Of a DNA stretch of 9,637 bases, positions 55 through 9,637 are shown piece after piece. This DNA comes from a virus. Taxonomy: Duplodnaviria > Heunggongvirae > Uroviricota > Caudoviricetes. The first letter of the stretch is position 1. Each line of letters opens with the position of its first letter. Both the position numbers and the translations under genes were made by a program. Below the pieces are notes generated by a model. The model made no database searches and had not been told where the DNA came from. It saw nothing but the letters and a program-made list of their open reading frames with translations. The stretch lies in the IMG/VR virus record IMGVR_UViG_2529293148_000011; one strand, 5' to 3'.

Positions 55-324
55 ATGAGCGAACAGTACCTGATAACGCTCGACGAGTGGAAACCAAAAC
101 GGTTCAGTCTCCCAATAACAAACACTACCCTGGTGAAATACGGAAAACTAGGATACATCGTTCCAAGACCACAAAAAATTCGTGGGCGTTGGCTGATAGA
201 TCGCCGGGCAGTATTTGTTGGACCTGGTGAAACGGGAATTGCGCCGGAAATTCATACTGGCGATGATGATGCACTGAAGGAGATTTTAACTCATGTCACC
301 GAGGCCACGAAAAAACAGCACTGA
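55..324 (+). CDS. xis: Excisionase (Xis-like, lambda/e14 type)
   Basis: ATG at 55 preceded by GGAG at 43-46. N-terminus MSEQYLITLDEW resembles lambda Xis MYLTLQEW. Small basic protein directly upstream of int, overlapping it by 32 nt as in lambda. The frame is open back to the window edge, so a longer upstream start (track uses GTG at 46) cannot be excluded. Confidence 0.75.
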   Translation: MSEQYLITLDEWKPKRFSLPITNTTLVKYGKLGYIVPRPQKIRGRWLIDRRAVFVGPGETGIAPEIHTGDDDALKEILTHVTEATKKQH

Positions 325-1411
325 CGTAACCGGTCTTTACGAAAAGTTTGATCGCAGAACTGGCAGGGTTTACTACCAGTATAAAAACCCTGTGACTGGA
401 AAATTTCACGGTCTCGGAACAGACAAAGGCAAAGCAGAAAAAATCGCTTCCACAGCCAATCAGCGAATAGCTGCAGCAGAAGCTGAATATTTCATGCGCA
501 AAATTGATGAAAGTCCGTCAGCAACAAAACGTCGGGGCATCAGATTAAAGGCATGGGTTGATCGATATCTGAAAATACAGGACGCGCGACTGAAAAATGG
601 AGATATTGCAGCTACAACTCACAAAGAAAAAACTCGAATGGCTGCATACCTGGTTTCCCGTCTGGGAAACCACCCATTGAAAGAACTGGAAGTAAGAGAC
701 TTTGCATTAATACTGGATGAGTGGCTGGATAAAGACATGGTCAGCACAGCGAGAGTAAATCGTGGATTATGGGTTGATATTTATAAAGAAGCACAGCATG
801 CAGGGGAAGTTCCTCCTGGATGGAATCCTCCGGAGGCTACCCGTAAACCGATCCCTAAAGTAACCAGAGCCAGGCTCACCATGGAAGACTGGCAAAAAAT
901 TTACAATGCAACGCCTGAAAAACACTTTATCCGTAACGCAATGCTTCTTGCGATTGTTACTGGTCAGCGCCGTGATGACATTTGCCACATGCGTTTTTCA
1001 GATGTGTGGAACGAACACTTGCATATCACCCAGGGAAAAACCGGAATGCGTCTGGCGTTACCGCTTACACTACGCTGTGATGCCATTGGGATAACGTTAA
1101 AAGAAGTTATTGATGGGTGCCGAGACAGAATATTAAGTCCATATCTAATCCATAGTCGGCACCAGAAACAACCGAAGCCGATGAGTAAAGACAACCTGAG
1201 CGACTACTTTGCCAAAGCACGGGATCTGGCTGGGATAATTCCACCAGCAGGAAAAACTCCGCCAACATTTCATGAACAACGCTCTCTATCAGAACGGCTG
1301 TACCGTGCACAGGGTATCGATACAAAAACATTACTAGGGCATAAAGTCCAGGCAACCACCGATCGCTATAACGATACTCGAGGTCAGGAATGGGTTAAGT
1401 TGGTTATTTGA
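293..1411 (+). CDS. int: Tyrosine site-specific integrase, lambda Int family
   Basis: 372 aa. C-terminus HEQRSLSERLYRAQGIDTKTLLGHKVQATTDRYNDTRGQEWVKLVI parallels the lambda Int catalytic region (H-x-x-R, LLGH, Y) as recalled. AAGGAG lies upstream of the ATG at 293. Resembles e14 IntE from memory. Confidence 0.95.
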   Translation: MSPRPRKNSTDVTGLYEKFDRRTGRVYYQYKNPVTGKFHGLGTDKGKAEKIASTANQRIAAAEAEYFMRKIDESPSATKRRGIRLKAWVDRYLKIQDARLKNGDIAATTHKEKTRMAAYLVSRLGNHPLKELEVRDFALILDEWLDKDMVSTARVNRGLWVDIYKEAQHAGEVPPGWNPPEATRKPIPKVTRARLTMEDWQKIYNATPEKHFIRNAMLLAIVTGQRRDDICHMRFSDVWNEHLHITQGKTGMRLALPLTLRCDAIGITLKEVIDGCRDRILSPYLIHSRHQKQPKPMSKDNLSDYFAKARDLAGIIPPAGKTPPTFHEQRSLSERLYRAQGIDTKTLLGHKVQATTDRYNDTRGQEWVKLVI

Positions 1412-1474
1412 CAAACACCATATGGAATATCCGTCACCATCTCAGGAAAAAAGTGTTGTAAAATGCGTGGCCTA

Positions 1475-1510
1475 GTTTTGGGGAAACGTTTTGGAGAGAT
1501 TTTGGAGAAA
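1475..1510 (+). repeat. Three tandem direct repeats of GTTTTGGRGA (1475-1484, 1488-1497, 1500-1510); candidate integrase arm-type sites
   Basis: Read directly from the sequence, period 12-13 bp, non-coding, about 65 bp downstream of the int stop. Confidence 0.4.
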
Positions 1511-1629
1511 GGAAAAAATTGAATAAATTCAAAATCCTGAAAGTGTCCCGCCTTATGAATAAGAAGGTGAGCGAATTAGATGATTAATCCTTTATATTCA
1601 ATGCATTAAGTTTGTTTTTGAGTGGTTTT

Positions 1630-1647
1630 GCCGTTTAATGTAACGGC
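1630..1647. other. Inverted repeat GCCGTT-TAATGT-AACGGC; candidate att core
   Basis: Perfect 6-bp arms around a 6-bp AT-rich spacer, in an AT-rich region between the two clusters of GTTTTGGAGA motifs. The geometry resembles tyrosine-recombinase core sites. Confidence 0.3.
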
Positions 1648-1683
1648 GTTATAGATCCTATCAAAATCAATCAATTCCGTTCT

Positions 1684-1710
1684 GGTTTTGGAGAAAGATT
1701 TTTCGAGAGC
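1684..1710 (+). repeat. Fourth GTTTTGGAGAAAG motif copy plus a degenerate copy; candidate arm-type site on the other side of the core
   Basis: GGTTTTGGAGAAAG at 1684-1697 is identical to the third unit of the 1475-1510 cluster, in the same orientation. Confidence 0.35.
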
Positions 1711-1752
1711 TTCGGTCTTTAACTAAAACTGATTGCGTATAATCCCAATACC

Positions 1753-1782
1753 CCTCCCCGACTATCTGAATGGTCGGGGAGG
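1753..1782 (-). terminator. GC-rich hairpin (10-bp perfect stem CCTCCCCGAC/GTCGGGGAGG, 10-nt loop) downstream of the tfa remnant
   Basis: Lies 37 nt 3' of the tfa-remnant stop on the - strand. No clean U-tract follows, so it may be a decayed terminator or an RNA processing site. Confidence 0.35.
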
Positions 1783-1818
1783 CACTTCAAGCACAAAATA
1801 TCATCCCTGCGCCGTTGA

Positions 1819-2049
1819 TTACTCTGCAGGTGAAGTCGGCCACTCAATATCAGGTGCAGTTGATGTATCAACACGATTCAACAATACCCGATATTTATTC
1901 CATGCCTCCAGCAACGATCTTTCTTCCTCCTTTGCGATTTCCAGATCTACAGCATCCTGCAGTGGCGCAATATACTCACTGAATTCCTGGGTGTAGAACT
2001 GTGTGGTGACGGTCTTCCAGCCATTCGGCTCCTGCTGTATCGAAGCATA
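1819..2049 (-). pseudogene. tfa: Tail fibre assembly protein (lambda Tfa type), 3' fragment without a start
   Basis: The - strand translates as ...[53 protein letters not shown]-stop, matching the conserved lambda/e14 Tfa C-terminus. The frame is closed by TAG at 2050-2052 with no ATG or GTG, so only about 77 codons remain. Not in the ORF track because it has no start. Confidence 0.7.
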
Positions 2050-2141
2050 CTAGGCTATTTCAATATCGCTATGCTGCGGCAGCATTTAACCCCTTGTAAT
2101 TCATCGCCATAATTGATTTAATTCACAAACAAAACTATAAC

Positions 2142-2810
2142 ATGGTGAAATTAATGAAAAAAAACACAGATGATGGGGCTAAAATTTACACACCACTTAC
2201 CCTAAAGCTTTATGACTGGTGGGTTTTGGGAGTATCAAATCGGCTTGCATGGGGATGTCCTACAAAGGAATACCTTCTTCCACACTTTCTGGAACATTTA
2301 GGTAACAACCATCTGGATATTGGTGTTGGAACTGGGTTTTACCTTACTCACGTACCTGAGAGTAGTCTGATATCTTTAATGGATTTGAACGAAGCTAGCC
2401 TGAACGCGGCATCTACAAGGGCTGGGGAATCAAAAATTAAACATAAAATTAGCCATGATGTTTTTGAACCTTATCCCGCGGCGTTACATGGTCAATTTGA
2501 TTCCATTTCCATGTTTTACCTTCTTCACTGCCTGCCTGGAAATATATCTACAAAAAGCTGTGTAATACGCAATGCGGCGCAGGCCTTAACTGACGATGGA
2601 ACTCTATACGGAGCCACAATTCTTGGCGATGGAGTTGTGCACAATAGCTTCGGTCAAAAACTGATGCGCATTTACAATCAGAAAGGCATCTTTTCAAACA
2701 CAAAAGATTCCGAAGAAGGCTTAACGCATATACTCTCAGAGCATTTCGAGAATGTTAAAACCAAGGTTCAAGGTACTGTAGTAATGTTTTCCGCTTCAGG
2801 GAAAAAATAG
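2142..2810 (+). CDS. Class I SAM-dependent methyltransferase (small-molecule type), likely cargo/moron gene
   Basis: Motif I LDIGVGTG and a post-II-like FDSISMFYLLHCLP. No DPPY/NPPY or PCQ DNA-methyltransferase motifs. The ATG at 2154 has a better SD (GGTGA at 2144-2148) than the ATG at 2142. May correspond to e14 YmfD, but that is an unverified recollection. Confidence 0.8.
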   Translation: MVKLMKKNTDDGAKIYTPLTLKLYDWWVLGVSNRLAWGCPTKEYLLPHFLEHLGNNHLDIGVGTGFYLTHVPESSLISLMDLNEASLNAASTRAGESKIKHKISHDVFEPYPAALHGQFDSISMFYLLHCLPGNISTKSCVIRNAAQALTDDGTLYGATILGDGVVHNSFGQKLMRIYNQKGIFSNTKDSEEGLTHILSEHFENVKTKVQGTVVMFSASGKK

Positions 2811-2817
2811 CATCCAA

Positions 2818-2850
2818 CCGCAGCACGTTCTTGCTTAAGACGTGCTGCGG
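2818..2850 (-). terminator. Hairpin (10-bp stem CCGCAGCACG/CGTGCTGCGG, 13-nt loop) between the convergent methyltransferase gene and the pin/tfa remnant
   Basis: Lies 15 nt 3' of the - strand remnant stop. On the - strand a T-run follows after 10 nt (TTGGATGCTATTTTTT). Confidence 0.4.
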
Positions 2851-2864
2851 CATAATCCCAATGA

Positions 2865-3191
2865 TTACTCCATGACAGGGTTCGTAGGCCACTCAATATC
2901 AGGTGCAGTTGATGTATCAACACGATTCAGCAACACCCGATACTTTTTCCAGGCTTCCACCACCAGCACGACAAGATGCCGCATACAGTGACCCAGTCAG
3001 TCCAGTTTCCAGACAACCAGTGCGTCACCTTTTTGAAGGCGCTTTAAAGCACGTTTTAATCCAGGTCGGCCTGTCCTTGTTCCGCTTTATTTATCTTCAA
3101 ATATTTGTTCACATCCTGCACAAACAAGAGCGTTTCGTTGCAGGTCTGTATTCTGGTCATTTGTTGATACCCTTACATAACCAATCAGCAC
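2865..3191 (-). pseudogene. pin: Serine DNA invertase (Pin/Gin/Hin/Cin family) N-terminal remnant fused to a tfa 3' end; two in-frame stops
   Basis: From GTG at 3191..3189 (SD GGGAGA upstream) the - strand reads VLIGYVRVSTNDQNTDLQRNALVCAGCEQIFEDK[84 protein letters not shown]. The first ~77 codons match the invertase N-terminus including the catalytic-serine region. Stops are TAA at 3089..3087 and TGA at 2999..2997. The last ~31 codons are a Tfa C-terminus. Confidence 0.75.
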
Positions 3192-3245
3192 ACTGAATCT
3201 CCCGTCCAAAAGCGCAAATCATGCCATGCAGGCCGGATACGGCCA

Positions 3246-3271
3246 TTATCTAAAACCTCGGTTTACAGGAA
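3246..3271. other. Din-family invertase crossover site (gix/pix/hix-like): TTATCTAAAACC TC GGTTTACAGGAA
   Basis: Two 12-bp half-sites, TTATCnAAAACC and GGTTTACAGGAA (reverse complement TTCCTGTAAACC), around a 2-bp core; this fits gix as recalled. It sits 55 bp upstream of the pin start and abuts the orphan fibre segment. Confidence 0.6.
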
Positions 3272-3649
3272 ACGGTAAATCAGGCTTCTGGCGCATTACA
3301 GAAAAACCAGAACGGTGCAGATATTCCGGTAAAAGATACCTTCACCAAAAATATTGGTGCCTGCCGCGCATATAGAGCATGGCTGAATATTGGTGGCGAT
3401 AGTCAGATCTGGACAACCGCGCAATTTATTTCGTGGCTGGAGAGTCAGGGGGCATTTAACCATCCTTACTGGATGTGCAAAGGCTCATGGGCTTATGCAA
3501 ATAATAAGGTTATTACAGATACAGGTTGCGGAAATATTTGTCTTGCAGGTGCTGTGGTGGAAGTTATTGGCACTCGCGGCGCAATGACCATACGCGTTAC
3601 TACTCCGAGTACGTCCTGCGGCGTCTGTCGCCCATTTTTCCGAAAATAA
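3254..3649 (+). pseudogene. Orphan variable C-terminal segment of a tail fibre protein (Sv-type, Mu/P1/e14-like), no start codon
   Basis: A 132-codon open frame starts inside the crossover site: NLGLQETVNQASGALQKNQNGADIPVKDTFTKNIGACRAYRAWLNIGGDSQIWTTAQFISWLESQGAFNHPYWMCKGSWAYANNKVITDTGCGNICLAGAVVEVIGTRGAMTIRVTTPSTSCGV... This Gly/Trp/Cys-rich sequence is characteristic of invertible-segment fibre tips as recalled. A TAA at 3251-3253 inside the site closes the frame upstream. Confidence 0.5.
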
Positions 3650-3788
3650 ATGCTCCGACAATACGTGCCACATAACCTGCACCGTAGGTTCCCATTGCCA
3701 GAATTAACGCCATTGCCGTTGATGATTCAGGAAAAAATATTTCATGAAACACTAACGCTGCGCCGAGCGAATATAACTGGAAACCCAT
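3600..3788 (-). pseudogene. N-terminal fragment (TM1-TM2) of an MFS metabolite:H+ symporter-type transporter
   Basis: 62-aa ORF MGFQLYSLGAALVFHEIFFPESSTAMALILAMGTYGAGYVARIVGAFIFGKMGDRRRR... resembles the N-terminus of ShiA/ProP-type MFS proteins (ALVFNREFFP...FGHFGDRLGRKR in ShiA as recalled). An in-frame TGA lies immediately upstream of the Met, and the ORF ends inside the fibre-tip segment, so only about 60 codons of a roughly 430-codon gene remain. Confidence 0.45.
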
Positions 3789-4008
3789 GATTCATAGATA
3801 TTTTTTACCATCCTGTGGATTTCTGGGCGTTTTCTAAGTTTTTTTAAGATGGTTGTATTTTTTCTAAAAACTCCTGAACTCGATTTTGCTGTTTGTCTGA
3901 GGCCTTTTTATGTCCCATATATGCCCCAAGGTGCCCCATGTAAATCCAATTCAACTCAAAGCGTCCATGTTCAATATTTTTACAAGGGGCTGGCATATCA
4001 ATGTTTTT

Positions 4009-4584
4009 TTATTGCGTAACGTCAAACGCTCGGATTGAGCGTAAATCATCAAGATTATTCAGTTCTTCCTTCATCTCCCGCTGACGCTGATAAATCTCGT
4101 TATTGCGATCGACCTGTGCCTGCGCCATTGCTGTCGCCAGTTCTTCCAGTTCCGGCATTGACAGTTTCACCTGTTGATTATCGGCATCACCCCATGCAAG
4201 GGCGGTTAGTGCCGTATCAGATTTCGCCGCCATTACTACCGGATAAAGACGGGCCATTGAGTCGGGGCCAGCGTTCCAGGTGCGACCGTTCCATTCAAAG
4301 GTGAACGGCAGTGCTTCCTGTTCTGTGCGCCATGCCTCGATTTCCTGCTTTTTGGCATCCTTCGCCGCGGCGATAAGTTCCGGCGTGACAGTGAAAGGGG
4401 CGATTTCGCCCCATTTGCCGTTCTGCAACTCTTCCCAGATGCGCTGGCCTGTCGGTGCGGTATCATCCTGCATGGCGGTATACGGGACGAATTCCGTTTC
4501 ACCTTCAAATAACACCTCGCAGTCAACCGCACCATTTTCAAGATAATGGGCGTTTCTGATGCCCTTTACCGCTCTGATTTTCAT
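4009..4584 (-). CDS. tfa: Tail fibre assembly protein / chaperone
   Basis: 191-aa ORF starting 13 nt after the stf stop, with SD GGGGAA. Size and position immediately 3' of the side tail fibre gene match Tfa-type chaperones. The C-terminus lacks the [16 protein letters not shown] motif, so it is a different Tfa subfamily from the two remnants. Confidence 0.7.
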   Translation of the reverse strand: MKIRAVKGIRNAHYLENGAVDCEVLFEGETEFVPYTAMQDDTAPTGQRIWEELQNGKWGEIAPFTVTPELIAAAKDAKKQEIEAWRTEQEALPFTFEWNGRTWNAGPDSMARLYPVVMAAKSDTALTALAWGDADNQQVKLSMPELEELATAMAQAQVDRNNEIYQRQREMKEELNNLDDLRSIRAFDVTQ

Positions 4585-4597
4585 GTTTTATTCCCCG

Positions 4598-6721
4598 TTA
4601 CTCGATGCGCACAAACAGGCAGATACGACCGGTTATTCCTTTAGAGTCCCTGACCCCGGATAGCGCCATATAACGCCCCGGGAAAGTGTACCCTGTAGCT
4701 CCTGCACTCGGTGCGGAATTGTAGGAGCCAACCCCAGGAGAAGATATTAAGCACGAAAGATTAACTCCGCCCAGTTGTGACCCCTGCACCACATCACCCA
4801 GGCCAATATTGATTTCTTTATCCCCGAAAGTTGTTCCGCGATAAACAGCCAGCACTGGAACACCCACTGCCGGGTATTTGAAATATGAGCCTGAGCCCGC
4901 CGTCCTGGACAGCAGGAAGGCCAGCGAATCGCCGTCGTAAATAATGGGGCTTACTGTTGCATTCCAGTTGTTTCCACTAAAGCGGTAAGTCAGGAAATGA
5001 ATACTATGCTCACCTTCGTAATACTGGTTAAAACACAGCAGTGTTTTGAATTTGCGTATTGTGTCCGACTCATCGTTATCAAAGGGCGACCACATCACAT
5101 CAATGATGCCGTTAAATTTCTTGGTGCCTACCAGCAGCATGGAAGAATCCGCAAGACTGACCGCATAACGCCCCGGCGTGGCCACTTTCAGCCATTCAAC
5201 AAAATCGGCCTGCCCGTTAAATGTCAGGGCTTCGGTGCTGGCAAATGCCTGACCGAACCCATGCATACCGGACAGTGCCAGCCTGCCCGGTGCGCGGTCG
5301 CGGATATAGCTCTGGGGTTCCATCGTAGCAGCAGCTTTCAGTCCAAGCTCCGTGCGCATGTCTCCAGGCGTGTTTCGTGACAGTAATAAGCGAGCCTTGT
5401 TGCTGCATGGAATTGCTTTTGCCTCAAAGTTATCACCAAAATAAAGGAGAGAGTTTTGTCCCACCCCTACCTTGCTGATATTGGTTAACGTATTGTTAAG
5501 CGGCTGTTTACCTGCCAGTGCTTTAGTAACCGTTGTCGCAAAGTTCGGGTCATTGCCCAGCGCTGCTGCCAGCTCGTTCAGCGTGTCCAGGGCTTCCGGT
5601 GACGAGTCAACCAGCGCAGCAAGCAGTTTGCGAACAAATGCCGCGTTCGCTGTTTCCAGACCGGCAGCATCGTCCGGTGGGGTTGGTGTGGTGGGTGTGC
5701 CGGTGAATGCCGGGCTGTCCAGCGGCGCTTTTGTTTTCGTCTCGTCCATGACGGTTTTGACGGCTTTTGGTGTGGCTGCCAGTTCCTCGCTGTCGTTGTC
5801 TGTATCACTACAGAGTTGCACCAGGCCTTTTTCTGTTGTGGAAGCATTGCTTCCCTTCAGGTCATCAACAATCCGTTGCGCCTCGTCCCTGTGCTGTTTC
5901 GCTTCCTGCGCATTGCCTGCGCTCGCATCCTGGCTGGCCTTCGCCTGCCGGGCGTATTCGGCAGCGTTATTTTCATGGCCCAGCGCAACATTTGCCGCAT
6001 TTTCTGCACTGGTCGCAGCCAAAGATGCTGCTTCCTTATACTGACTGGCGCGTCCGGCTGCATCAACCGATTCATTCCGCGCTGCCCCTGATGCCTGAGC
6101 ACTGTTTTCTGCCTCATTCGCAAAACGCTCTGCGTCATCACGGGCCGTTTCGGTTGCTGTCACATCCTGTGCAGTCTGTTGTGCGCTTCCGGCTGCATTA
6201 TCAGCGTGACTTTTTGCGTTCTGCTCGCTTTTTGCAGCCGCTTCGGCGCTCTGCTGTGCCTGATTTTTCAGCTCTTCTGCCTTATTTTTACTGTCAAGAG
6301 CAGAGGTCGCTGCGTTTGTTGCTGTATCCGCTGCCGACTCTGCTCTTTTACGGTCATCAGTGACCTGCTCTGACTGCCGGGTAACTGCATCCACCATTTC
6401 CTCAAAACGCTTCATCACCTCCGGACGTAAATCACCATCCTTTGGTGCATCCAGAAACGCGTTCAGTGTCCCAGGTGTGTCAGTCGGTGCCACATAAATA
6501 TCCCCGACACGGGTTGGCTGCCAGCCGTTACGGTTAAGCGCAACCTCGTAATACCCCGGCTCAGCCTCAATCACATAAGCACCGTTATTGTCCGTCACAC
6601 AAGTGGCGACAACGTGTGCCACAACGGTCGGACTGGTTCTTCTGGCCCGCAGTTCAATCGCACAATTTACGACAGGCTTACCCGCCCCGTCTTTCAGCAC
6701 ACCTGAAATCTTTACTGCCAT
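4598..6721 (-). CDS. stf: Side tail fibre protein (lambda Stf-like)
   Basis: N-terminus MAVKISGVLKDGAGKPV matches lambda Stf. A long Ala/Ser/Gln/Glu-rich shaft is followed by LAATPKAVKTVMDETKTKAPLDSPAFTGTP...LNELAAALGNDPNFATTVTKALAGKQP, a conserved Stf region. The likely start is ATG 6721..6719 (GGGG SD); the track's GTG at 6727 is two codons upstream. Confidence 0.9.
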   Translation of the reverse strand: MAVKISGVLKDGAGKPVVNCAIELRARRTSPTVVAHVVATCVTDNNGAYVIEAEPGYYEVALNRNGWQPTRVGDIYVAPTDTPGTLNAFLDAPKDGDLRPEVMKRFEEMVDAVTRQSEQVTDDRKRAESAADTATNAATSALDSKNKAEELKNQAQQSAEAAAKSEQNAKSHADNAAGSAQQTAQDVTATETARDDAERFANEAENSAQASGAARNESVDAAGRASQYKEAASLAATSAENAANVALGHENNAAEYARQAKASQDASAGNAQEAKQHRDEAQRIVDDLKGSNASTTEKGLVQLCSDTDNDSEELAATPKAVKTVMDETKTKAPLDSPAFTGTPTTPTPPDDAAGLETANAAFVRKLLAALVDSSPEALDTLNELAAALGNDPNFATTVTKALAGKQPLNNTLTNISKVGVGQNSLLYFGDNFEAKAIPCSNKARLLLSRNTPGDMRTELGLKAAATMEPQSYIRDRAPGRLALSGMHGFGQAFASTEALTFNGQADFVEWLKVATPGRYAVSLADSSMLLVGTKKFNGIIDVMWSPFDNDESDTIRKFKTLLCFNQYYEGEHSIHFLTYRFSGNNWNATVSPIIYDGDSLAFLLSRTAGSGSYFKYPAVGVPVLAVYRGTTFGDKEINIGLGDVVQGSQLGGVNLSCLISSPGVGSYNSAPSAGATGYTFPGRYMALSGVRDSKGITGRICLFVRIE

Positions 6722-6732
6722 ATTCACCCCAC

Positions 6733-6758
6733 AAAAAAGCCCGCCTGAACCGGCGGGC
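6733..6758 (-). terminator. Rho-independent terminator downstream of lom
   Basis: On the - strand: GCCCGCC-GGTTCA-GGCGGGC followed by TTTTTT, between the lom stop (6786) and the stf start (6721). Confidence 0.65.
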
Positions 6759-6785
6759 TGTCATAACACTGTGTTACCTGGCTAA

Positions 6786-7397
6786 TCAGAACTTATAACC
6801 GACACCCACGATGAAACCGTCAGTGCGCCAGTCACCACTGCCGGAGCCTTCATAAGCAAGGTCAATAGTCACCGTTTCTGCCGGGCTGAACTGAAGACCC
6901 GCACCCCATGCCAGCGACAGGTGTCGTGCGGTATAGCCATCACTGGCGGTGGTCGTCTCCTTCACATACCCCGGTTTCAATTCATCACGTCGGTAATCCT
7001 GAACACTGTCAGACCAGCGGGTGTAAGCCATCCCAGCCGTGCCATAGAGACTGACCTGCTCACTGACCTGCCAGACAGGGCCGGCCATCAGACTCACATA
7101 ACGACCGCGCAGGCTTTCATAATGGAGCGTATTTTCACCCGTCTTCATCGTGTCGCTTTTTTTCGCCGACGCATAACTCAGCGAAACAATACCACCCGCA
7201 TGGTCCGTGAATTCATAACGGTATTTCACGTTAATCCCTTTTAAATCACCTGTACGGGCACCGGTACCGGACAATGCCGGCACGCCGCCCGGGTGAACCT
7301 GAGCATATCCCACGGAAAACGCACCGTGTCCGACTTCAGCCTGCGCAGGAAGGGCCATTCCTGCCAGAAAAGCGACAAAAAATAAAATATGGCGCAT
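6786..7397 (-). CDS. lom: Lom-like outer membrane protein (Ail/Lom/PagC family)
   Basis: 203 aa with a signal peptide (MRHILFFVAFLAGMALPAQA). The body and C-terminus (LAYEGSGSGDWRTDGFIVGVGYKF) closely match lambda Lom as recalled. SD GAGAGG precedes the ATG. Confidence 0.9.
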   Translation of the reverse strand: MRHILFFVAFLAGMALPAQAEVGHGAFSVGYAQVHPGGVPALSGTGARTGDLKGINVKYRYEFTDHAGGIVSLSYASAKKSDTMKTGENTLHYESLRGRYVSLMAGPVWQVSEQVSLYGTAGMAYTRWSDSVQDYRRDELKPGYVKETTTASDGYTARHLSLAWGAGLQFSPAETVTIDLAYEGSGSGDWRTDGFIVGVGYKF

Positions 7398-7421
7398 GAT
7401 TACCTCTCGTTTTCAGTCAAT

Positions 7422-7445
7422 AAAAAAGGCACCGCTTCGGGTGCC
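7422..7445 (-). terminator. Rho-independent terminator between J and lom
   Basis: On the - strand: GGCACC-CGAAGC-GGTGCC stem-loop followed by TTTTTT, 20 nt 3' of the J stop. Confidence 0.55.
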
Positions 7446-7464
7446 CCTCCGGGTTAATAAATCG

Positions 7465-9637
7465 TCAGCTGATACTGATTCCTGCCGTGGATTTTTTCAT
7501 GACCACCACCAGTAAATCGCTGATGTACGTTGTCGGCGTCCATTTGTTCGCGCCGGTCGACGACACATTAAACGTCAGGGTGACATGACCCCGTCCTGCC
7601 GGCATATCTATCACCGATGAGAACACCCGGCTGACATCCGTTGCCGGTTCATGGAAAATCTCAGCCCCGTTTTTAAACACCTGCAGCTTGCAGGTGGAAT
7701 ACCAGTATGACTGTTGGTTATGACTGTTGAAATTCTGGTGTTTCGTACCACGAAATAATACCGGCGGAATGATAATCTGCCGGTCGAATCCCTGATCATC
7801 ATAAACCGTGACGGTTATAGTGCCACTGGCATAACTTCCATTTCGCGGGAAAGCCTTACCCACCGTTTTGACAATATCGCCTTCAATCTGGCTGGCTGAC
7901 AGTTTTCCAAGGATCCGGCAGTTCTGATTAATCGTGACGTTGTTGAGCGTCCCGGAATTCGCATTCACGTTACCGCTGATATCAGCATTTCTCGCCGTCA
8001 GCCGCCCGTCCGGTGTCATGGAGAATGCCGGAGGATTACCGGATGACGTGATGCTCACCGCAAATAGTCGCTTCAGGAACACGTCGTTCATGAACAGCTG
8101 ATTCCCCTGCGCCACAAACAGCGGCGTGGTGTTACCGTTCTCCGGGGTAATCATCGCAATGCGATCGGCCTGCAGCAGAATGTTACTCAGGGTCTGACCA
8201 TCAACATCCTCAATCCCTGCACCAATACCGGCCACATAGGGAATACCGTTTTTTGTTTTCTGCACCTTCAGCATATACATGGCATTCAGCTCATTGCGCG
8301 TGTCTGACTGAACCCGCTGGATTTGCTGTATGGTCACGGCCTGGTCACCCAGCTTTTTATCCGTGGTCGAGGTAATTTCACTCCCTTTTTTATCCACGTA
8401 CTGGCGGACCTGTGCTATCTGTCGGGCGTTTTCTGACTGCCCCTGGCTGACAGTCTGTGAGATTTCACTGCTCACCCGGTCCACTTTCTGGTTCACCTGC
8501 GCGATGGCCAGTGCCTGGTCCTCATTCTTTTTCGCAACCAGCTGCGTGAGAGTGTTTTCCGCCTTCCCGATTTTCCGGGTCACTTCTGCGATATCCGTGT
8601 CCATCCGCTGACGGATGTCTTCTTCCAGTTGCGTGACCTCCGTACGCAGCGCTGAAGCATCAATGCGCTCTTTCAGTGCCTGACCAAGAAGCGTCTCATC
8701 TATCAGCCCCCGGAAAATTTCCAGATACCCTTCACCATCATTGCTGGGCTGCCCGCTGGCTTCCACAAAAGCAGATTTTCCCACCAGGTTGACGCTTCGC
8801 ACGTAAAACCAGAAATCCGTCCCCGGCTTAATCCGGCTCCCCTGGACAGTCCACTGACTGCCGGCCCCCAGATAACGGGCAGATTTTTCCACCTGTGCTG
8901 TGTTCGTGATGCGTTTTTCTGAGAACCAGAATTCAAACTGTACCGTCGGGTCATACACCGCAAGACGCGGGACCGCCGTTATCTGAAAATACCCCGGCGT
9001 CAGCTCAATGGTGGCGGGTTTTGCAGGTGCGTTAATCCGGAAGGTGGTGGTGGCAGGATCGCCCTGCTGTCCCCACGCATTTACCGCCCGGACTGTCAGC
9101 CTGTAGTTCCCCAGCGCCAGTTGTGTGAAGCGGTAAGTGGTTTCCGTCGTCCGGGCCGTGCTGACCAGCCGCTCACTGCCGTCATCCGCTGTTACAGTCA
9201 GGCGAAGCAGGAAGCTCACGCCCTTCACCACCTTCGGCGTGTCCCAGCGGGCCAGTACCTGATACTCCCCGCTGTCTGCAGTGACTTCGGCAGTCAGGTG
9301 CTGCACCGCTGGCGGCGTGACACCATTCACCGTGCCGCTCTGGTCGCCGTCAAAGTGCGCCCCGTTATCCACGATGGCTTCTTTTTCCGGTACATGCTGC
9401 ACGGCAGTGATGGCATGCGTGCCGTCATCGTTCTCACGAATACTCACACAGCGGAACAGGCGCTGGCGCAACGTCGGCAGCTTCAGCCCCCATACGCTGT
9501 ATTCAGCAACACCGTCAGGAACACGGCTCACTTTTACCTTCACGCCGTCGGTGACGGACTGAACCTCCACGCTGACCGGATTGCCACTTCCGTCAACCAG
9601 GCTTATCAGCGTGGTACCGGAGGATGGCAGCGTGATT
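7465..9637 (-). CDS. J: Host specificity / central tail fibre protein J (C-terminal ~720 codons; 5' end lies beyond the window)
   Basis: The frame is open from the window edge (9637) to the stop at 7465. A long beta-rich protein immediately upstream of lom-stf-tfa, as in lambda. The C-terminus ...[14 protein letters not shown] is in the receptor-binding region. Confidence 0.9.

Follow-up and report, generated by a model that had tools for sequence, protein, structure and literature searches.

The reading frame at positions 2,865 to 3,191 of the 9,637-nucleotide stretch of DNA analysed here (the window) joins the 5′ part of a serine DNA invertase gene to the 3′ end of a lambda-type tfa gene. 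We regard it as an inherited scar of illegitimate recombination, situated at the right-hand end of a lambdoid prophage whose integration site is the 3′ end of potB, and put the probability of this reading at roughly 85%. The feature is an ordinary, common and untranslatable pseudogene scar, which is of use in annotation and in lineage tracing. Two neighbouring annotations, “recombinase family protein” and “partial tail fiber assembly protein”, turn out to be the halves of one illegitimate join in hundreds of Escherichia coli genomes, and the junction itself provides a base-precise marker for following a prophage lineage. The features discussed below are collected in Table 1.

Table 1. Features of the window around the invertase-tfa junction, with strand and supporting evidence.
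Feature	Positions	Strand	Evidence or remark
Second, distal tfa 3′ remnant, ~57 codons	1819..1992	-	Caudo_TAP profile 77-131, E 4.6e-24
Class I SAM-dependent methyltransferase gene, ybcY-like	2142..2810	+	Pfam Methyltransf_12/23/25/11; RefSeq annotation of homologous loci
3′ remnant of lambda-type tfa	2865..2961	-	Caudo_TAP and lambda Tfa identity; ends with TAA 2867-2865
Breakpoint	2959..2962	-	Three-way ungapped alignments
Invertase stub, second block, codons 64-77, e14 pinE/P2/Chris1 type	2962..3000	-	Ungapped alignments
gin 5′ part, Mu/D108-type, codons 1-64	3001..3191	-	D108 identity and Pfam Resolvase
Sole remaining gix-type crossover site, TTCCTGTAAACCGAGGTTTTAGATAA	3246..3271	-	D108 match; 55 bp upstream of gin start
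5′ fragment of alternative tail-fibre C-terminal cassette, D108 S′-like	3272..3621	+	Ends abruptly at 3621

The chimeric frame and its breakpoint

On the minus strand the frame opens with GTG at 3191-3189 and closes with the TAA listed in Table 1, as read from the translation of 3209-2840; its invertase and tfa parts share strand and frame, the latter amounting to about 30 codons and a stop. In a Pfam scan for which the two internal stop codons were restored as L and R, the first 79 residues matched Resolvase (PF00239, E 1.4e-22, profile positions 2-86 of 145) and the last 31 residues matched Caudo_TAP (PF02413, E 3e-13, profile positions 104-130 of 131). By tblastn, the segment VVEAW...VME is 87.5% identical to the last 32 codons of lambda orf-194/tfa (J02459.1, 22459-22554), and at the DNA level 2865-2957 shares 98-99% identity with the tfa 3′ ends that precede a methyltransferase gene in many E. 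coli. A sequence-only reading of the window had placed a chimeric junction within 2930-2990, and these matches, with a switch at 2962-2955, bear it out at a level well above what chance would give. The opposite possibility, that 2865-2957 is the true C-terminus of an invertase, fails on the same tfa identity and on the lack of any similarity to invertases in this region.

The nucleophilic-serine motif that marks a serine DNA invertase, YVRVS9T (VLIGYVRVSTNDQ), is present, and the catalytic Ser9 lies in the upstream block of the stub. The DRLGRS motif has decayed to D*LGHC through the TGA at 2999-2997 and the replacement of Arg by His and of Ser by Cys. (The stub carries GACTGACTGGGTCACTGTATGCGGCATCTTGTCGTGCTGGT, for which an ancestral form with CGA is assumed.) Positions 87-145 of the Resolvase profile are missing, which leaves the catalytic core incomplete, and helix E and the helix-turn-helix (HTH) DNA-binding domain are missing as well, the sequence past codon 77 being tfa; the earlier claim that the DNA-binding domain had been removed is thus correct. 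The invertase frame is interrupted 5′ of the junction by nonsense at codon 35 (TAA, 3089-3087) and again at codon 65 (TGA, 2999-2997). Because both stops precede the junction, a fusion protein cannot be made; nor can the stub yield an invertase, since helix E, the HTH domain and the latter half of the catalytic domain are gone. The two genes had been described as fused in frame, and the reading frame is indeed continuous across the join; the “in-frame fusion” is a property of the DNA and of no protein. The tfa half is equally incomplete. The last 30-32 residues, conserved among lambda Tfa (orf-194), TfaQ, TfaR and TfaD, are retained, whereas a full-length Tfa of about 190 aa with its own start is absent: 30-32 codons are left, some 160 N-terminal codons are gone, and an invertase stub rather than a tail-fibre gene lies directly upstream.

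To locate the switch, the window was aligned without gaps to invertase references (D108 gin, Citrobacter phage Chris1, a P2-like phage, and the e14-type pinE genes of AH01 and Ecol_545) and to complete or longer tfa references (strain 25DN, K-12 tfaD and lambda), and the distal tfa remnants were aligned as well. Across the junction the minus strand of the window reads ...ATGCGGCATCTTGTCGTGCTGGT GG TGGAAGCCTGGAAAAAG..., where pinE-type genes have ...ATGCGGCATCTTGTCGTGCTGGT CGAAGAAATG... and tfa genes ...CTCATTGC TGGAAGCCTGGAAAAAG.... The window follows the invertases as far as 2962 and tfa without a break from 2959, in agreement with the earlier placement of the switch after about codon 77. The tfa parent also matches 2962-2961 and the invertase parent also matches 2960, and neither matches both 2961 and 2960; these two bases may be a 2-nt filler, a later substitution or the trace of a slightly different parent. 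The first clearly Tfa residue is the Glu encoded by GAA at 2957-2955 (LLEAW in tfa, LVEEM in the invertase), so that homology switches at codons 77-79. Intact E. coli tfa genes begin to match at window positions 2965-2959, which agrees with this placement. The pairwise comparison suggested by the earlier reading therefore fixes the breakpoint at 2962/2959, a precision of 2-3 bases, with microhomology of at most 1-2 nt.

Unambiguous microhomology at the join amounts to 0-2 nt, which fits illegitimate recombination and with it the earlier proposal that a deletion or illegitimate event had joined the middle of pin to the end of a tfa gene on the same strand. A microhomology-mediated deletion through the hexamer TGCTGG was considered and rejected: the hexamer occurs in both parents with an offset of 6 nt, and both copies have apparently been kept, side by side (TGCTGGTGGTGG). 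That the invertase itself made the join, by aberrant recombination between gix and a quasi-gix in tfa or gin, we consider highly improbable. Cin and Gin occasionally recombine at secondary quasi-sites, and an active invertase and gix sites once lay next to the junction, but the breakpoint falls inside the invertase coding sequence and not at gix. Moreover, the best gix-like match within 35 nt on either side of the junction scores 11 of 26, below the value of 12 that is commonest for random 71-nt stretches of the window. The absence of a gix-like site, together with the very short microhomology, argues that the join was illegitimate and non-homologous and was not the work of the invertase.

Origins of the two halves

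Our alignments divide the invertase stub into two blocks of different affinity. The upstream block, 3191-3001, is 96.3% identical to nt 1-191 of D108 gin, and the similarity continues beyond the gene: 3290-3001, comprising the start of S′, gix and gin nt 1-191, is 95.2% identical to D108 and 93% to Mu, and 3621-3001 is 95.7% identical to the S′-gix-gin′ region of D108. The window thus shares with the gin-gix-G segment of Mu and D108 both a DNA identity of 95-96% and the arrangement in which gin and S′ diverge from gix. Downstream of this block, identity over 3000-2955 (39 nt that end the stub and 7 nt that begin the tfa part) falls to 54% for D108 gin, as against 76-78% for the Chris1, P2-like and pinE-type invertases, and the 23-nt run ATGCGGCATCTTGTCGTGCTGGT within 3000-2962 is identical to the pinE-type genes of AH01 and Ecol_545. 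Codons 69-77 (MRHLVVLV) are likewise identical to those of the AH01 and Ecol_545 genes, whereas the 5′ 191 nt of the stub are only 71-74% identical to the e14 pinE and P2/Chris1-type genes, the remainder of which is missing here. Compared with gin of Mu and D108, the window keeps 77 codons, with two nonsense codons, and the last 13 belong to the other invertase type; it also lacks helix E, the HTH domain, the downstream com/mom genes and the partner gix, and its host element is lambdoid rather than Mu. In the ETEC relatives the D108-like DNA extends exactly from gixL to gin nt 191.

These comparisons indicate that the stub is a mosaic: its 5′ end is gin of the D108/Mu type, and the segment that follows is of e14 pinE/P2 type. 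The name pin given to it earlier has to be amended to a D108-gin/pinE mosaic. Such a mosaic could have formed when a D108-like G segment with the 5′ 191 nt of gin entered an older pinE-type invertase gene by homologous exchange running through the conserved 5′ end of invertase genes, before or after the truncation. The locus also exemplifies the grafting of Mu-type invertible tail-fibre modules onto lambdoid prophages. When E. coli genomes were searched for an intact parent with a synthetic query (the stub followed by the 3′ half of Chris1), only e14-type pinE genes at 85% identity were recovered; these match the block 2962-3000 and not the block 3001-3191. Nor did we see a lambdoid prophage with a full-length invertase of the 2962-3000 type followed by tfa. 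No intact parent was found, and the join may have been a deletion within one element or a crossover between two. Intact D108-like gin genes of E. coli, carried by a Mu-like (L006) and a P2-like (L016) prophage, were rejected as the ancestral arrangement, both prophages being non-lambdoid and without a downstream tfa.

The tfa half belongs to a prophage-end module that is found in several lambdoid prophages. The methyltransferase gene of this module is convergent with the tfa remnant and is followed by the distal remnant, which is annotated as a partial tfa in homologous loci; a direct repeat of 79 nt at 90% identity (1835-1913 and 2884-2962) brackets the methyltransferase gene. In strain 25DN, the potB locus has no invertase; its tail-fibre gene is complete, and the tfa that follows is full-length, though frameshifted, with the convergent methyltransferase gene, a tfa remnant and potB after it. 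This arrangement shows the tfa side as it was prior to the join. DLP12 of K-12 ends in the same module, the pseudogene cluster tfaD-ybcY-tfaX, in which a class I SAM methyltransferase gene stands between the 3′ part of one tfa gene, with which it is convergent, and the 3′ remnant of another. Unlike the window, DLP12 has a terminase remnant joined to its tfa fragment, which is 146 codons long, and a frameshift in the methyltransferase gene; the module lies beside appY rather than potB. In strain Sanji, 45 tfa codons are joined to a tail-fibre fragment, and in a further locus (L018) a fragment of about 41 codons is preceded by a different, heavily decayed invertase 5′ end. From remnants of 146, 45, about 41 and about 30 codons we conclude that the tfa gene 5′ of the methyltransferase gene was truncated independently several times, at no fewer than four points, and the gin′-′tfa join is one of these repeated truncations of the methyltransferase-adjacent tfa.

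Three smaller observations concern this module. L018, at 6760-7200, belongs to a potB prophage with Baseplate_J/GP46-type tail genes and the same methyltransferase module, ahead of which lie a gix-like site, what is left of the invertase 5′ end (YVMMSTFDQNMELQ...) and a longer remnant of tfa; this combination of stub and remnant is a separate version and looks older. Between the convergent stops of the methyltransferase gene and the tfa remnant lies a 9-bp inverted repeat (2820-2848, gcagcacgt ... acgtgctgc) that may act as a bidirectional terminator. A 45-codon open reading frame on the minus strand (2755-2892) overlaps the 3′ end of the methyltransferase gene and, out of frame, the tfa remnant; it is annotated in relatives as “hypothetical protein” or “nucleocapsid protein” in RefSeq (WP_001309429.1, WP_071592174.1) and is probably a spurious gene call.

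Distribution of the junction and inversion in relatives

An 81-nt query centred on the join found an unbroken match in 538 of 5,426 complete E. coli genomes (~10%), ST131 and many ETEC strains among them, and a 511-nt query that includes the methyltransferase side was covered to at least 80% in 453 genomes. Most copies lie at the potB end of a lambdoid prophage, usually in the order potB, tfa remnant, methyltransferase gene, tfa remnant, gin stub, gix, S′ U′ U S, stf, lom and J. In FMU073332, the junction lies instead at bioA/ybhB and is followed by a diguanylate cyclase gene rather than the methyltransferase gene, and its occurrence at both potB and bioA/ybhB shows that the scar has travelled with phage DNA. 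Among the copies that were read (L001, L002, L007, L013, L014 and L019-L023), the junction sequence and the TGA at codon 65 are common to all, and the TAA at codon 35 is restricted to the window's own lineage (L021 and L022). The join thus did not arise in the present genome; it is an inherited scar, present at two or more chromosomal sites.

DNA and protein searches found the junction in none of 50,697 phage records; every tblastn alignment to these records begins at query residue 6, and none reaches the HLVVL part. Among GTDB species representatives, the exact 32-mer of the junction had one match, on a 2.5-kb contig of a “Bacillota bacterium” metagenome-assembled genome (MAG; L014, JAEWTL010000008.1). 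This contig is 99.56% identical to the junction-bearing prophage end of E. coli FMU073332, and the match probably reflects contamination or mis-binning. A full-text search of the literature found no description of the junction.

The general risk that repeats mislead assemblers applies to the window, which has two copies of a tfa 3′ end, but an assembly artefact or chimeric contig can practically be dismissed as the source of the junction: identical copies occur in hundreds of independently finished genomes, and positions 1556-8810 of the window are 100.000% identical to a contig of the independent NCBI assembly GCA_045077245.1 (L021), in which potB follows immediately on the left. We also think it very unlikely that the locus is a functional gene, encoding a short invertase-Tfa fusion or a 64-residue regulatory fragment with, for instance, a dominant-negative effect on inversion. 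The frame is kept across the join, the stub is retained in 538 genomes, and RefSeq annotates it in relatives as a “recombinase family protein” of 64-72 aa; yet the TGA at codon 65 precedes the junction in every copy examined, so that no fusion is translated, and the additional TAA at codon 35 in the present lineage shows that even the 64-residue frame is unconstrained. Moreover, DRLGRS is destroyed, and neither the dimerisation helix E nor the DNA-binding domain is left.

The gix site of the window lies within the 95% D108-like block, is identical to the gin-adjacent site of D108 (L010), and differs from that of Mu by one mismatch. Two inverted 26-bp sites flanking alternative tail-fibre ends are not found in the window, which has one site and a 350-nt S′ fragment. 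In contrast, the ETEC relatives L001 and L002 keep both gix sites, about 2.9 kb apart. Between H10407 and ETEC-2264 the 2,953 bp between the gix sites are inverted at 99.83% identity (7691-10643 in L002, 4812-7764 in L013), and the flanks, including the junction, are collinear. Three genome records (H10407, SEC470 and 90-9280) match the H10407 arrangement over 824 nt at 100.0% identity, and a version flipped in silico was found at 100.0% over 824 nt in ETEC-2264 and one further genome record; the window has the “flipped” S′ beside gix. Since the two strains differ in orientation though both bear the dead stub, inversion must have continued after the truncation. The simplest explanation is that the segment in these relatives is presumably flipped in trans by a Pin-family invertase of another prophage; recombination by RecA on the inverted repeats of about 38 bp could also explain the ETEC inversion and is the weaker alternative.

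Gin, Pin, Cin and Hin are classically interchangeable. PinQ, in addition, acts in trans on the e14 segment (PMC12529663). Dependence of one prophage on another is therefore already known in principle, from the complementation among Gin, Pin, Cin and Hin and from PinQ on e14, and the relatives, whose segment inverts despite their own dead invertase, offer a natural example of it. The Hin enhancer is 65 bp long and lies about 100 bp from hix (PMC3798978). From this position and from the 96% identity of the 5′ 191 nt to D108 gin, a Fis-dependent enhancer would still lie within the stub; a hin-like placement needs ~165 bp past gix, and about 230 bp are retained.

These findings raise the possibility that in this prophage family, which about 10% of complete E. 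coli genomes carry (ETEC H10407 is one of them), the stub persists as a cis element for cross-prophage switching. The gixR site and the Fis-dependent enhancer would keep the segment switchable by invertases of other prophages, and the truncation would have been tolerated or even favoured. We hold this proposal only tentatively, as the less probable account of the stub's retention. Post-truncation inversion, as seen in the 824-nt flanks matched at 100.0% in each orientation and in the 2,953 bp at 99.83%, is consistent with it, as are the length of DNA kept past gix and the precedent of PinQ on e14 (PMC12529663). Against it, both the enhancer within the stub and the trans-acting invertase in the ETEC strains are putative, retention may be the neutral persistence of a short scar, and the proposal is inapplicable to the window itself, from which gixL and most of the segment have been deleted. 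If the stub does serve as such a cis element, host range or tail-fibre surface phenotypes of the PinQ/StfE2 kind may be controlled across prophages, and the present window would be a later, wholly decayed derivative.

Proposed history and surroundings of the window

For the inherited scar that we favour, the following history can be proposed. The ancestor would have carried a Mu-type invertible module (gixL, G segment, gixR and invertase gene) upstream of, and co-directional with, a terminal module of tfa, convergent methyltransferase gene, older tfa remnant and attR. One non-homologous join, by deletion or by a crossover between two elements, would then have connected invertase codon 77 to about codon 163 of tfa and removed helix E, the HTH domain and some of the catalytic core from the invertase and the first ~160 codons from tfa. 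The in-frame outcome is a coincidence, and the stub, which was a pseudogene already or became one, encodes nothing functional. A second illegitimate join, at 3621/3626, has deleted the remainder of the segment from the window and left 2865-3621 as a fossil. This order of events is the one we infer for the scar.

The second join is visible in the window at 3615-3630, where S′ ends at about 3621 and a fragment of the host gene ydfJ on the minus strand begins at about 3626, with 3-4 unassigned bases between them; this join, too, lacks homology. Up to 3621, the S′ fragment is 97.7% identical to ETEC strain 504838. As S′ is cut at this point, gixL and most of the invertible segment are gone, and nothing within 2865-3621 can function. 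Several NCBI assemblies (L019-L023) have the same 3621/3626 join at potB. Beyond the ydfJ piece follows the right end of a lambdoid prophage of the ydfJ site (Qin site), with a DUF4376-type tfa, stf, lom and J. At the other end of the region shared with L021, 1556-1587 represents the final 32 nt of potB. The place that potB occupies in L021 is taken, left of 1556, by a phage integrase gene (293-1411) and a short xis/AlpA-like open reading frame (46-324), an arrangement that looks like, and is consistent with, a second prophage in tandem at the same att site.
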